Shown here piece by piece: positions 45,660-51,764 of a stretch of DNA of 64,000 bases. A model generated the notes under the pieces. It had not been told where the DNA came from and did no database searches. It was given only the letters and a program-made list of their open reading frames with translations. The first letter of the stretch is position 1. Every line of letters starts with the position of its first letter. This DNA comes from Dehalococcoidia bacterium. Lineage in GTDB: Bacteria; Chloroflexota; Dehalococcoidia; Lucifugimonadales; UBA2985. The translations under genes were made by a program, and so were the position numbers. The stretch is from contig DAOUJW010000015.1 of the NCBI GenBank assembly GCA_034422115.1, forward strand, positions 27,771-91,770, in the 5' to 3' direction.

Positions 45660-45938
45660 ATGATTAGAGGATTCAAGGACAGGGATACACAAAGGTTCTT
45701 TGAGGGGCATGACGTCAGAGAGTTTCGCGGCTTTGAAGCTCAGGCAACGCGGCGGCTGACGGTGCTGGACAACGCGTCATCGCTGAGAGACTTGGCCGGT
45801 CTGCCAAGCAACAGGCTGGAACTGCTCTCCGGTGGCAGGGCAGGCCAGCACAGCATACGGATCAACCGCCAGTGGCGCGTGTGCTTCCGCTGGGGAGAAG
45901 ACGGGCCGTATGACGTGGAGATAGTGGACTACCACTGA
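45660..45938 (+). CDS. higB: HigB-type toxin (RelE/ParE superfamily, plasmid maintenance system killer)
   Basis: MIRGFKDRDTQRFFEG..., LLSGGRAGQHSIRINRQWRVCFRW...VEIVDYH. Confidence 0.85.
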   Translation: MIRGFKDRDTQRFFEGHDVREFRGFEAQATRRLTVLDNASSLRDLAGLPSNRLELLSGGRAGQHSIRINRQWRVCFRWGEDGPYDVEIVDYH

Positions 45939-45951
45939 TGAGGAGTCTGAG

Positions 45952-46323
45952 ATGAGCATGAACATCAGAAACGGAATGAAGCCGGTGCATCCCGGGGAGA
46001 TACTGGGAGAGGAGCTTGAAGAGCTTGGTATGTCTGCAAACGCGTTGGCAAAGGCCCTGGGCGTCCCCACCAACCGGATTACCGCAATTCTGAACGGCCA
46101 GAGGGGAATGACAGCCAACACGGCTCTGCGCCTGTCCCGCTACTTCGGCACCACGCCTGAGCTGTGGATGAACCTTCAGAAGACCTACGAGCTGCGCGTG
46201 GCGGAGATAGAGGCGGGCGCGGACATTGCAGAGCGGGTACGGCCCAGGATTGGCGGCCTTGCAACGGGATTCTCAATAGCCGAGCCAAAGGCAGAGTACG
46301 ACGCAAGCGGCAGCGAACTATGA
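45952..46323 (+). CDS. higA: HigA-type antitoxin (XRE HTH)
   Basis: HPGEILGEELEELGMSANALAKALGVPTNRITAILNGQRGMTANTALRLSRYFGTTPELWMNLQ. Confidence 0.88.
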   Translation: MSMNIRNGMKPVHPGEILGEELEELGMSANALAKALGVPTNRITAILNGQRGMTANTALRLSRYFGTTPELWMNLQKTYELRVAEIEAGADIAERVRPRIGGLATGFSIAEPKAEYDASGSEL

Positions 46324-48413: not shown

Positions 48414-49638
48414 ACGCAAGGAGGACTCCGCCACGCCAAAGACCCCGATATCCACGAAAGTCCGGCCCGAGAGGGCCGTGGTGGTGGGAGTGGATGCCAG
48501 AAGCTCGCCCCACCTGTGGACAATAGAGGACTCCCTGGAGGAGTTGGGACTCCTCGCGAACACCGCGGGTGCGGAGGTGGTTGGCGCCGTCTCTCAACGC
48601 CTGGAGAAGCCCACTCACTCCTACGTGGGCAAGGGCAAGCTGGGGGAGGTGCAGGCGCTCAGAGAGGACCTGGAAGCCGACGTTGTGATTTTCGACGACG
48701 AGCTTACGCCGTCCCAGCAGCGCAACCTGGAGGACGCCCTCAAGGTCAAGGTAATCGACCGCACTGCGCTCATCCTGGACGTGTTTGCGCGTAGGGCGCG
48801 GACGCGGGAGGGGCGACTTCAGGTGGAGCTGGCACAGCACGAGTACATCTTGCCGCGCCTGGCAGGCCAGTGGACGCACCTGGAGCGCCTGGGCGGCGGC
48901 ATAGGCACCCGGGGCCCAGGCGAGACGCAGCTTGAGACGGACCGTCGGTTAATTCGGACCAAGATCCAAAGGCTCAAGAGGGAGCTCGACGACGTGCGGC
49001 AGCAGAGAGACCTGTACCGCAATCGTCGGAAGCGACAGGGCATTCCCGTGGTGTCCCTGGTGGGCTACACAAACGCGGGAAAGAGCACGCTCCTCAACGC
49101 CCTGAGCGACGCCGGCGTGGTGGCGGAGGACAAGCTGTTCTCGACGCTTGACCCGGTGACCAGGAGGATAAAGCTGCCGGGCGAAGGCTTCTTCCTGCTA
49201 ACGGACACCGTCGGGTTCATCCAGAAGCTGCCTCCGAGCCTCCTGGCGGCGTTCAGAGCGACCCTGGAGGAGCTGCAGGAGGCCGACGGCATTCTGCACG
49301 CCGTGGACATAACGCATCCCAACGCCGCGGAGCAGGTGCAGGTGGTGGACGACCTCCTGACGGAGCTCGACCTGGACGAGAAGCCCCGCATCTGGGCCAT
49401 GAACAAGATGGACCTGCTGATGGACGAGTCGCAGATAGAGGAGCAGATAGGCCTCCTGGAGGCCCGGAGAGGCGAGGAAAGCGTTGTGGCTGTGTCTGCG
49501 GCCAGGGGCTGGGGGCTGGACAGCCTGCTGGAAGCGGTTGATAATCTTATAAAAGGCCAGATAACCGGGCCTCATAATGCAGCGGGGTTCTGGGCGAACC
49601 ACCGCTATCAAGATCAGGAAAAGGAGAACCGGTCATGA
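48358..49638 (+). CDS. hflX: GTPase HflX
   Basis: ERAVVVGV..., [21 protein letters not shown]. The start is uncertain: ATG 48358 overlaps dapL by 56 nt, and GTG 48478 is also possible. Confidence 0.85.
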
Positions 49639-49976
49639 CAATGGAAATAGAGGGTCTGCCTTCCAGGCCTTTCTTCAACTGCACCCCCGAGGGGCTGGAT
49701 ATTCTGGATTCCAGAGAGATGAGCGGCGCGGCGCGCCTGGACGCGATTGAGCCGAAGATCAGGTTTGAGCTGGGTGACAGGAACGTCATCGACTCAAGGC
49801 CGCGCAAGGCCGCCAGCTCCAAGCCCGGCCAGGTGACGGTTGAGTGCGAGGGCGGCACGGTCCACATCGACTTCGAGGACGGGCGGGCAAAGAAGGTCAC
49901 GGCCCAGGGCGAGTTCGTCTACATGGGCGGCCTTGAGGACCGGAACGAGGGCCTGGGGTACATCCCTGTGTCTTAG
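49635..49976 (+). CDS. Hypothetical protein, translationally coupled to hflX
   Basis: 113 aa; ATGA overlap with the hflX stop. The C-terminal 14 aa [14 protein letters not shown] are duplicated at 51719-51764. Confidence 0.6.
49931..49976 (+). repeat. Left 46-bp direct repeat (att-like) of the islet
   Basis: 39/46 identical to 51719-51764 by my alignment. Confidence 0.85.
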
Positions 49977-50148
49977 CAGTAGCGGGGCAGATCATTCACT
50001 CAGTGGCCCCCGGTTCTCGTCACCCCCAAGGGAGGTCGGTTTCTCGAAAGAAGCACCAGGTAAGGGAATCGGTGCTAGTGTCAATACTTTGTGGTATATT
50101 TATGCTACAGGTACCAAAGACTATCTATGAAGGGAATCCACTAAGAGT

Positions 50149-50463
50149 ATGGAAATGCAGGAGGGACCAGAGCCTAAGAATACTCTACCAGCGGCCGAGC
50201 CTGCTGAAGATTTGCAGGAATTCTACGCCGACAACATGACAATAAACTCCGGGCTTTATACGGCCACTCTATCCTTCGGGGAATTACGGGGCAACGACCC
50301 AGGGATTCTACGTGCGCGCATTCGGGTTAGTCCTCACATGCTAAAGGCAATTAGCCTGCTTACGGCCAAGCACGTGCGGGATTTCGAGGCGAAAACTGGC
50401 GGTCCCATCCTACTCCCTAATGAATTGGTACACCAATGGGGATTGGAGGAAGAAATCAGATGA
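50149..50463 (+). CDS. DUF3467 family protein
   Basis: FYADNMTINSGLYTATLSFGEL...RARIRVSPHMLKAISLLTAKHVRDFEAKTGGPI matches my recall of the DUF3467 pattern. Confidence 0.65.
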   Translation: MEMQEGPEPKNTLPAAEPAEDLQEFYADNMTINSGLYTATLSFGELRGNDPGILRARIRVSPHMLKAISLLTAKHVRDFEAKTGGPILLPNELVHQWGLEEEIR

Positions 50464-50705
50464 TGATGGCAACAGTTACGACAACAGCAGAGAACTTCGT
50501 TGCTGTTACAGCAGCGCTAGAAGTCGAAGGTTATACTTGGCGATCAATCGCTGAGCATTCAACTGAGCCGGATGACCAGTCGTGGTTCTGGACTTCTGCA
50601 TGGCAAGAAGAAGAGGGTGAAGCTACGTTGGAAATCCAGAGAGGGCAACTCTCCAAGCCTCTTTTTGGTGTGGAAGAGATAAGGCAGCATCTCTCCGACC
50701 TATAA
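50460..50705 (+). CDS. Small acidic Trp-rich protein, putative antitoxin
   Basis: 81 aa; its ATG overlaps the DUF3467 stop (ATGA). It ends 9 nt before the RelE-like ORF. Confidence 0.45.
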   Translation: MMMATVTTTAENFVAVTAALEVEGYTWRSIAEHSTEPDDQSWFWTSAWQEEEGEATLEIQRGQLSKPLFGVEEIRQHLSDL

Positions 50706-50714
50706 TAGCTGTCC

Positions 50715-51011
50715 ATGGCTGGTGGCCAGAGTACCATTAAGGCGGTTCGATTCACCCCACGATTCGACCGCTCCTATAAGCGCAAGTCTAAGGAGCAGCG
50801 TGAGGCTGTTGACGAGGCGGTAGTGCAGTTGTATACCAATCCTTCGAATCCTTGGCTACGCGTGAAGAGAGTTCGTGGAGTCGGCAAGGGAGAGGAGATT
50901 TGGGAAGCATCCGTGGATATGTCTCGACGAATTACCTTCGAATATGGCGACGACGGCTCGACCATAATATTCCGCAATTGCAATGGACATGAAATCTTCA
51001 GGCAACCCTAA
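50715..51011 (+). CDS. RelE/ParE-superfamily toxin-like protein
   Basis: FTPRFDRSYKRKSKEQREAVDEAVVQLYTNPSNPWLRVKRVRG...IWEASVDMSRRITFEYGDDGSTIIFRNCNGHEI fits the RelE/YafQ/ParE-like layout. Confidence 0.6.
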   Translation: MAGGQSTIKAVRFTPRFDRSYKRKSKEQREAVDEAVVQLYTNPSNPWLRVKRVRGVGKGEEIWEASVDMSRRITFEYGDDGSTIIFRNCNGHEIFRQP

Positions 51012-51272
51012 CCATCCACAACCCCGGAGTCGTCCATTTCAACCCGCTGCTGCGGCCTAGGCCAGGGCAGTATCCGCCCGAATAGGCAACAATGTCCTTT
51101 GCCAAGTGTCCCTCTTTTGTTTTGTCACTAGTGCTGTCCTCTCGCTGACGGCTTATGTTCTCGGATCACAGCCACTGGAGTCACATCCTCCGCACCTTGA
51201 GCCACAGCCTTGATCTGGTAATTGCCTTCCTAGCTTTCGTCGCTAGCATAGTGTCGGGGATCCTTTGCTTTC

Positions 51273-51500
51273 TCAATAGCAAAGATAGGCGATAACCCCG
51301 TAGGGGCTACGAGCTAGGCATAATACATCTCCTAGATCACCCTCCAAACAGCTGCCTCTTGATTTTACCATCACGAGCTTGCCGTTCTCATCCAGCCTGT
51401 AGCTCAGGTGGAGCCTCTTACCGCAGTTGGTGCAGGTCAACCGGAACACACCCAGCTTCTCATTGGTGTACTCCATTAATGGGGCAGGAACCTCCGGCAA
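51273..51500 (-). CDS. Small hypothetical protein (CxxC)
   Basis: 75 aa, FRLTCTNCGKRLHLSY; TTG start 2 nt after the upstream stop, no SD. Confidence 0.35.
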   Translation of the reverse strand: MPEVPAPLMEYTNEKLGVFRLTCTNCGKRLHLSYRLDENGKLVMVKSRGSCLEGDLGDVLCLARSPYGVIAYLCY

Positions 51501-51502
51501 TC

Positions 51503-51700
51503 CTAGTAGAGCCGCTTGATCTGCTTGCTTTCAGTGTCTAGGGTGCTGAGGCCCAGGATTCCGCCAATGGCTTGAATGCGTCCATTGGTCTCGCTATCAT
51601 CTGAATCCTTCCAGAGGGCAATGACAATGTCGACCAGGTATTTGTCTTCGAGTTCAATGCTAATCTTCGTGCCGTTCGGCAGAGTTGAAGTAATCAACAT
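51503..51700 (-). CDS. Small hypothetical protein
   Basis: 65 aa, AGGAGA 6 nt upstream of the ATG, balanced composition. Confidence 0.5.
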   Translation of the reverse strand: MLITSTLPNGTKISIELEDKYLVDIVIALWKDSDDSETNGRIQAIGGILGLSTLDTESKQIKRLY

Positions 51701-51718
51701 GATTCATCTCCTGTCGGA

Positions 51719-51764
51719 CCTTGAAGACCGGAACGAGGGTCTGGGGTACATACCTGTTTCGTGA
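51719..51764 (+). repeat. Right 46-bp direct repeat (att-like) of the islet
   Basis: Encodes the same [14 protein letters not shown]-stop as the left copy, with only synonymous changes. Confidence 0.85.

Follow-up and report, generated by a model that had tools for sequence, protein, structure and literature searches.

We propose that a three-gene module at positions 50,149 to 51,011 of a 64-kb stretch of DNA from a member of the Dehalococcoidia (Chloroflexota), hereafter the window, to which all positions refer, is a tripartite type II toxin-antitoxin (TA) operon. In this operon, a first gene related to the DUF3467 superfamily (open reading frame 1, ORF1) precedes an antitoxin without a DNA-binding domain (ORF2) and a toxin of the RelE/YafQ/ParE-like type (ORF3), and the ORF1 product would bind the antitoxin and serve as its stabiliser or adaptor, in the manner of the chaperone of the toxin-antitoxin-chaperone (TAC) systems; we give this reading about even odds (a probability of roughly 0.5). 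The novelty lies in the accessory component of such a tripartite type II TA system, which here belongs to the DUF3467 superfamily. DUF3467 (PF11950) is a widespread bacterial family of about 100 amino acids (aa), to which the literature assigns no function and of which we found one incidental mention; the TA linkage would be its first functional context and is a hypothesis that can be tested cheaply. A toxin/antitoxin/accessory module with a DUF3467-type first gene had been suggested in an earlier note on this DNA, and comparative genomics supports the suggestion, in that the gene order recurs and occurs with several toxin families.

The three co-oriented ORFs of 104, 81 and 98 aa described in that note are present on the forward strand. 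ORF1 (50,149 to 50,463) has 28 homologues at 53-83% identity, and its likely start is the second ATG at 50,155, which yields a protein of 102 aa and is the start used in the database call. ORF2 (50,460 to 50,705), read from the ATG of its overlap with ORF1, is acidic as had been remarked (pI 4.2), and ORF3 (50,715 to 51,011) has a pI of 9.7. We compared the module with related loci or contigs, designated by L-numbers, of which L010 is a syntenic relative. Against L010 the ratio of nonsynonymous to synonymous substitution rates (dN/dS) is 0.12 for ORF1, 0.12 for ORF2 and 0.11 for ORF3; all three ORFs are under purifying selection and, because of these low ratios, are genuine coding genes. Nucleotide identity between the window and L010 is 81.6% over positions 50,129 to 51,013, and the flanking DNA differs. 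Homologues of every ORF of the module are present in other metagenomes, and its relatives place the window among metagenome-assembled genomes of Dehalococcoidia. The TGA of ORF1 and the ATG of ORF2 share an ATGA at 50,460 to 50,463 (forward strand), an arrangement by which the two genes are translationally coupled, and ORF2 is separated from ORF3 by a spacer of 9 nucleotides (nt; 50,706 to 50,714); both junctions are confirmed in the sequence. A Shine-Dalgarno GGAGG for ORF2 (50,445 to 50,449, forward strand) lies 10 nt 5' of the ORF2 ATG, within the codons of the conserved C-terminus of ORF1 (WGLEEE). Nearly all related loci have a GGAGG or GAGGAGG block 5' of the second gene, and the 4-nt ATGA overlap of first and second gene recurs in 11 of 14 related loci, as counted by hand from the junctions.

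ORF1 had been assigned to DUF3467 itself. As a direct Pfam assignment this does not stand, since there is no match at E <= 1 and the PF11950 gathering score of 25 bits is missed; what stands is a profile relationship at the level of the superfamily. An exhaustive search with a profile of the 28 ORF1 homologues recovered 194 proteins at E <= 1e-3, and among the best 149 of these 194 hits 121 match PF11950, the best at 3.9e-21. Among the ORF1 relatives the PF11950 scores climb gradually from below to above the threshold: P0038 and P0039 have no match, P0041 to P0049 score 17-21 bits, P0050 scores 27 bits and P0051 38.8 bits. Members of PF11950 resemble ORF1 in length (about 90-105 aa) and in a common pattern, Y-a-D...Y..L.FG...(R/K)(V/M)SPq.aK....LL.k....YE...G.I.LP, and differ from it in that ORF1 and its closest relatives fall below the Pfam threshold or have no match at all. 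Judged by profile search, ORF1 is a divergent member of the DUF3467 superfamily that lies outside the boundary of the Pfam family. Sequence and profile searches of the PDB with ORF1 and with the DUF3467 profile gave no meaningful match and no solved DUF3467 structure. ORF1 relatives were not found in the viral contigs or plasmids searched, and canonical DUF3467 was not found in the phage collection; searches of plasmids with canonical members returned two annotated DUF3467 contexts and nothing further. The DUF3467 alignments are too divergent for pattern-based searches of loci.

The evidence that places ORF1 in a TA context comes from the neighbourhoods of its relatives. The window's order of ORF1, ORF2 and ORF3 recurs in four further Dehalococcoidia lineages (L010/11, L006, L007 and L008), each with an ORF1-type gene, an antitoxin with a WFW motif and a ParE/RelE-like toxin. 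Elsewhere an ORF1-type gene and a small protein are followed by a PF02452 PemK/MazF toxin (L015/16, L017 and L020-22; 1.7e-12 in L015 and 1.4e-14 in L017) or by a PF02661 Fic/Doc protein (L018; 1e-14), and in L030 an ORF1-type gene and a 50-aa acidic protein precede a PF05016 ParE_toxin. An Anoxybacillus plasmid (L035) carries a canonical DUF3467 gene (2.5e-10), after which come genes for a PBECR2-like nuclease (1.2e-4, full profile length) and then DUF2283. Of about 19 informative ORF1/DUF3467-like lineages, counted by hand, at least 11 encode a recognisable toxin domain in one of the next two genes downstream, a frequency that we judge, from this count and not from a formal test, to be far above any plausible background. 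ORF1 relatives come first, before TA pairs whose toxins belong to at least four unrelated families, and because they precede several toxin types in this same, usually ATGA-coupled, position, the adjacency of the ORF1 family and TA genes is, by this comparison, not accidental. ORF1 sequences group loosely by partner type. The Doc-linked ORF1 of L018 and the PemK-linked ORF1 of L015 are 72% identical, and one and the same pair of unassigned genes (116-133 aa, then 93-103 aa; L009, L013/14 and L025) is found behind ORF1 proteins that share only 38-40% identity; partners have been swapped among ORF1 relatives. The link does not extend to the family as a whole. There are DUF3467 genes that occur singly in housekeeping contexts, and we therefore confine the claim to one branch of DUF3467 as a TA accessory; the functional context that had been hoped for is gained for this TA-linked branch, not for all DUF3467 genes, some of which are lysA-adjacent or stand alone.

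The survey also yielded several observations in their own right. In L001, L002, L003 and L005 the ORF1-type gene is followed by a gene for a 211-aa protein and by no third gene; this product (L001:4303-4938), which overlaps the ORF1 homologue by ATGA, carries the W-x-W...WQ antitoxin motif that ORF2 has and a C-terminal region of about 130 aa without a family match, and may be a fused or alternative effector. The unassigned pair (L013:1862-2504, L009:5240-5906 and L025:3026-3690) recurs after ORF1 relatives, and its small protein is basic. In L013 and L025 this protein is HicA-like by eye (..SHGS..KDLP...LGVT.QEL..) and its larger partner HicB-like, a likeness for which searches of Pfam, NCBIfam and the PDB gave no confirmation. 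In L008 the ORF1 homologue (L008:4959-5303) has lost the conserved C-terminus through an apparent frameshift (…VVHIGAWRRK vs …VHQWGLEEEI), which reflects either a pseudogene or an assembly error, and the ORF2 and ORF3 homologues are intact. DUF3467 may have a second recurrent partner in DUF6941 (PF22091), whose gene directly follows a canonical DUF3467 gene at L027:1362-1775 and L028:544-957. Past the DUF3467-like/PemK module of L020-L022, two genes further on, there is a DUF6941 gene as well (minus strand). In L026, mgsA lies downstream of a DUF3467-type gene, after a gap.

The RelE/ParE-like character claimed for ORF3 is weakly supported by direct search and more strongly by its relatives. 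Scans of the three ORFs with Pfam, NCBIfam, PADLOC and PHROGs returned nothing significant, the one weak match of use being that of ORF3 to PF15781. In the Pfam scan ORF3 matches PF15781 (ParE-like_toxin) at E = 0.0053 and 17.1 bits, under the cut-off of 28, and a sub-threshold match to this profile is found in six of the nine members of the ORF3 family (best 5.8e-4). Homologues on Firmicutes plasmids were detected by tblastn at 31-37% identity with E-values down to 1e-9. One of them, on a Planococcus plasmid (L032:1513-1788; 36.7% identity to ORF3, E = 5e-9), matches over the full profile length both PF15738 YafQ_toxin (1.3e-5, 25.8 bits, cut-off 30) and PF15781 (1.2e-4, 22.4 bits, cut-off 28). 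An AbrB/MazE/SpoVT antitoxin gene precedes the ORF3 homologue in all three plasmid loci inspected, and one plasmid homologue carries the annotation 'cytotoxin'. A small antitoxin gene adjoins ORF3 as well, at 9 nt, and homologous pairs are found in L004, in L012 and on plasmids. PF15781 is a BECR-fold family of unassigned activity that clusters with mRNases and is encoded in the order antitoxin then toxin, according to a recent survey (PMC11980606). An AlphaFold2 monomer model of ORF3, of low confidence (mean predicted local distance difference test, pLDDT, 61.3), has the topology E-H-H-E-E-E-E, that is beta-alpha-alpha-beta4, and in a Foldseek comparison with the PDB the top matches include two RelE structures, 3bpq (query-normalised TM-score, TMq, 0.33) and 2khe, with all E-values above 1. 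Sequence and profile searches of the PDB with ORF3 and with its family profile gave no meaningful match, and an hhalign comparison of the ORF3 alignment with one canonical ParE (L030) was uninformative. From these sequence relationships ORF3 is predicted to be a divergent member of a small family related to the RelE/YafQ/ParE-like toxins of the BECR superfamily. Because a His near the C-terminus (RNCNGHE) and Arg, Lys and Glu positions are invariant in the family alignment, we infer that ORF3 is probably an mRNA interferase, that is, a translation inhibitor that cleaves mRNA.

One could object that the likeness of ORF3 to RelE/ParE is spurious and that the module encodes a small complex of another kind, outside TA biology. 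This is in keeping with the position of ORF3 under every curated Pfam threshold, with the empty PDB profile search and the Foldseek E-values, and with a PADLOC scan that finds nothing. However, six of nine family members show the weak PF15781 match, and a plasmid homologue fits the YafQ_toxin and ParE-like profiles along their whole length; the plasmid homologues follow AbrB/MazE antitoxin genes, protein size, charge and gene order are those expected of a TA pair, and in sister loci the third gene unambiguously encodes a toxin, of the PemK, Doc or ParE type. We consider this objection very improbable.

ORF2 had been reported to match no recognised antitoxin family. Pfam and NCBIfam indeed return no match for it, and it has only two close homologues; its C-terminal half, however, is a tail of the AbrB/MazE type. 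This half (50,571 to 50,702, forward strand) carries the putative toxin-neutralising motif DDQsWFWTxxWQxxExEAxxEIQxGQ...L and aligns with antitoxins from loci without ORF1 (L004 and L012) and with the tails of plasmid AbrB antitoxins, which is why we take ORF2 to end in the tail of a known antitoxin type. The alignment comprises 11 sequences, among them three plasmid antitoxins that have a PF04014 N-terminal domain and are encoded before ORF3 homologues, and Q40, W42, W44, W48, Q49, E52, I59, G62 and L78 (ORF2 numbering) are invariant in all 11. In the plasmid homologues the N-terminal domain matches PF04014 (MazE/AbrB) at 1e-8 to 4e-12; in ORF2, Pfam did not find this SpoVT/AbrB swapped-hairpin domain, and its place in the alignment is taken by a hydrophobic segment of about residues 1-37 (50,460 to 50,570, forward strand), a candidate region for interaction with ORF1. 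The mean hydropathy (grand average of hydropathy, GRAVY) of the first 20 residues is +1.17 in ORF2, against -1.3 and -2.0 in the homologues from the loci without ORF1, L004 and L012. Of six ORF1-linked antitoxins of this type, five have values between +0.2 and +1.2, and the sixth, the 211-aa fusion of L001, has -0.09. Comparison of these sequences shows that ORF2 is an antitoxin which carries the tail of the AbrB/MazE type, with about 35 hydrophobic residues in place of the DNA-binding domain. The closest two-gene counterparts are the AbrB/MazE(SpoVT) and YafQ/ParE-like (PF15738/PF15781) pairs of Firmicutes plasmids, such as Clostridium tyrobutyricum pCTK01 and Planococcus antarcticus pPA05-1. 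They share with the module the ORF3-homologous toxin, the ORF2-type tail and the order antitoxin then toxin, and differ from it in having two genes, an antitoxin with N-terminal PF04014 and no DUF3467-like gene upstream.

A lost DNA-binding domain invites the explanation that ORF1 has taken over its task as an autoregulator in trans, which would bind an operator 5' of itself, possibly with ORF2 or an ORF2-ORF3 complex as co-repressor. The plasmid homologues of ORF2 have the PF04014 domain that ORF2 lacks, and Pfam finds a DNA-binding domain in none of the tested second-gene products from ORF1-linked loci. Two known systems, paaR2-paaA2-parE2 of E. coli O157:H7 and omega-epsilon-zeta, resemble the module in having, in this order, an accessory gene, a small antitoxin without a DNA-binding domain and a toxin. 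PaaR2 is a CI-like helix-turn-helix repressor and omega a ribbon-helix-helix protein. They differ from the module in that ORF1 has no recognisable DNA-binding domain and is found with many toxin families. PaaA2 is a short acidic antitoxin paired with a ParE-family toxin, and paaR2 is first in its operon, as is ORF1 (PMC8630535). The structured core of ORF1 (residues 33-104) has a pI of 8.45, and its strand of alternating Arg (RARIRVS) followed by a helix recalls, by eye, a ribbon-helix-helix; the whole protein, with its acidic tail, has a pI of 5.0, and no DNA-binding family is among the Pfam matches of ORF1 and 150 relatives. Promoter-like elements occur 5' of ORF1 homologues: a possible extended -10 element, TGGTATATT (50,092 to 50,100, forward strand), weak and read by eye, lies 5' of ORF1 in the window, and a block that resembles it, TGTGGTATAT..GCTRCA.GTACC, lies 5' of the L008 homologue. 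A consensus promoter scan did not pick up the element at 50,092 to 50,100, and by inspection no operator-like repeat is common to the regions upstream of ORF1 homologues. The pairs without ORF1 (L004 and L012) also have no DNA-binding domain, and therefore this TA type does not need one; moreover, a regulatory role leaves unexplained the hydrophobic N-terminus of the ORF1-linked antitoxins, which is missing in the two ORF1-less ones. We regard regulation by ORF1 as the main alternative, a possible but rather unlikely account; if true, it would make ORF1 the founder of a new DNA-binding family. Because ORF1 has no recognised DNA-binding fold, the module is not of the omega/PaaR2 type, which it resembles in architecture.

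It is also conceivable that ORF1 stands outside the TA mechanism, as a small gene of general function behind which mobile TA cassettes insert or persist, the TA pair being ORF2-ORF3. Homologues of this pair do exist without ORF1, in L004, in L012 and on the plasmids with AbrB antitoxins, and canonical DUF3467 genes occur alone (L034, where the gene has no co-oriented partner, and L036-41, 5' of lysA) or beside the non-TA gene DUF6941. Such a bystander role is hard to square with the ATGA coupling and a Shine-Dalgarno sequence inside the conserved C-terminus of ORF1, in 11 of 14 loci and across TA types, with the retention of ORF1-ORF2-ORF3 as a block against L010 while the flanks differ, or with the hand-counted frequency of toxin domains downstream, and we think it improbable.

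We thus favour ORF1 as an accessory to the antitoxin. In the mechanism that we propose, ORF1 and the antitoxin would be made in fixed stoichiometry, because their translation is coupled through the ATGA overlap. ORF1 would bind the hydrophobic N-terminal segment of the antitoxin and so stabilise or control it, and the ORF2 tail would wrap and neutralise ORF3. Loss or titration of ORF1 would free the toxin, and the module would work as a TAC-type system with a protein unrelated to SecB. The comparison with TAC systems (for example M. tuberculosis Rv1955-Rv1957, HigB-HigA-SecB, and the HicAB and MqsRA variants) had already been drawn in the earlier note; it holds as a functional analogy only, for no SecB homology is detectable, the genes come in another order and the extra antitoxin segment is at the N-terminus. 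Like the module, TAC systems join a TA pair and a dedicated accessory in a three-gene operon, use one accessory family across several unrelated toxin families, and have an accessory family with stand-alone members in housekeeping contexts. They also have an extra antitoxin segment that is not needed for toxin binding and is dissimilar in sequence between systems: one accessory family serves HigBA, HicAB and MqsRA via antitoxin extensions without mutual sequence similarity (PMC5105189). The accessory is SecB-like in TAC, whereas here it is DUF3467-like, of about 100 aa and without detectable SecB homology; its gene is last there and first here; and the chaperone addiction (ChAD) extension of the antitoxin is C-terminal there, whereas here the extra segment is N-terminal and replaces the DNA-binding domain. 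The C-terminus of ORF2 is the conserved toxin-binding tail, so that it has no C-terminal ChAD extension. As there is neither a SecB homologue nor such an extension, the module falls outside the TAC family, which it resembles in architecture.

Several results weigh against this reading. The AlphaFold2 monomer of ORF1, in which residues 37-43 and 54-60 form a beta-hairpin and residues 62-83 a long helix, is of low confidence (pLDDT 59.7), and Foldseek finds no structural neighbour of this model in the PDB (all E > 1). SecB homology of DUF3467 was considered and rejected: an hhalign comparison of the DUF3467 profile with E. coli SecB, whose sequence was verified against PDB entries 5jtl and 1qyn, gives a probability of 0.1, and a SecB Pfam match is absent from ORF1 and its relatives. 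ORF3 reaches no curated Pfam gathering score (PF15781, PF15738, PF05016), and its assignment to RelE/ParE is built from sub-threshold profile matches and a low-confidence model. The hydropathy contrast between antitoxin N-termini is one of six sequences versus two. Among the neighbourhoods, the gene after DUF3467 in L035 encodes a putative toxin and not an antitoxin, ORF2-ORF3 pairs occur without ORF1, and a stand-alone DUF3467 gene lies 5' of lysA in L036-41. Finally, the second-gene products of different TA types have no common N-terminal motif, although this is in line with the pattern of the TAC extensions (PMC5105189).

Should ORF1 prove to be a chaperone or adaptor of the antitoxin, control of TA pairs by a third component would have evolved at least twice, with unrelated proteins. 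The locus would also illustrate, as we propose, how an antitoxin can give up a DNA-binding domain and come to rely on another protein. A broader and more tentative conjecture, which we think less than likely, is that DUF3467 as a whole forms an unrecognised class of small chaperones or adaptors unrelated to SecB, in which stand-alone members would have a general role and the TA branch would bind a hydrophobic 'addiction' segment at the N-terminus of antitoxins. Were this so, it would represent a second, independently evolved TAC architecture that is portable across ParE/RelE, MazF, Doc and other toxins, and it could be a trigger point as in TAC, for example for phage proteins in abortive infection.

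The module lies in a 1.8-kb island of low G+C content (49,973 to 51,760; about 0.50, versus 0.63 outside), with hflX and a 113-aa ORF on one side and a gene for the ATPase of an oligopeptide ATP-binding cassette transporter on the other. The island is bounded by two copies of a 42-nt direct repeat on the forward strand, for which no match is expected by chance. The left copy (49,931 to 49,972) is at the 3' end of the 113-aa ORF, and the right copy (51,719 to 51,760) is 90% identical to it. The repeat looks like an att-type sequence or a target duplication; no integrase gene is present inside the island, and in L010 the module occupies the same site and the second repeat copy is missing. The 113-aa ORF (49,635 to 49,976, forward strand) overlaps the stop of hflX by 4 nt, matches no family and shares 90% identity with the ORF in L010, and its last 17 residues are repeated in frame at 51,711 to 51,761. 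A weak terminator-like hairpin 3' of ORF3 (51,133 to 51,152, forward strand) was returned by the terminator scan and is uncertain, its count not being above that of shuffles; the promoter and terminator scans did no better than on shuffled sequence. Two small adjacent ORFs occupy the minus strand of the island, at 51,273 to 51,500 (75 aa) and 51,503 to 51,700 (65 aa). The 75-aa product has a Cys-x-x-Cys-type spacing and faint matches to the PG0870 N-terminal domain (0.027) and phrog_672 (0.012), and is weakly conserved in L010 (38% over 44 aa). A second, canonical TA pair lies 5' of dapF on the forward strand, at 45,660 to 45,938 and 45,952 to 46,323; it comprises a HigB-like toxin (PF05015, 6.3e-14) followed by an HTH_3 antitoxin of the HigA type (8.2e-10), and is kept in L010.

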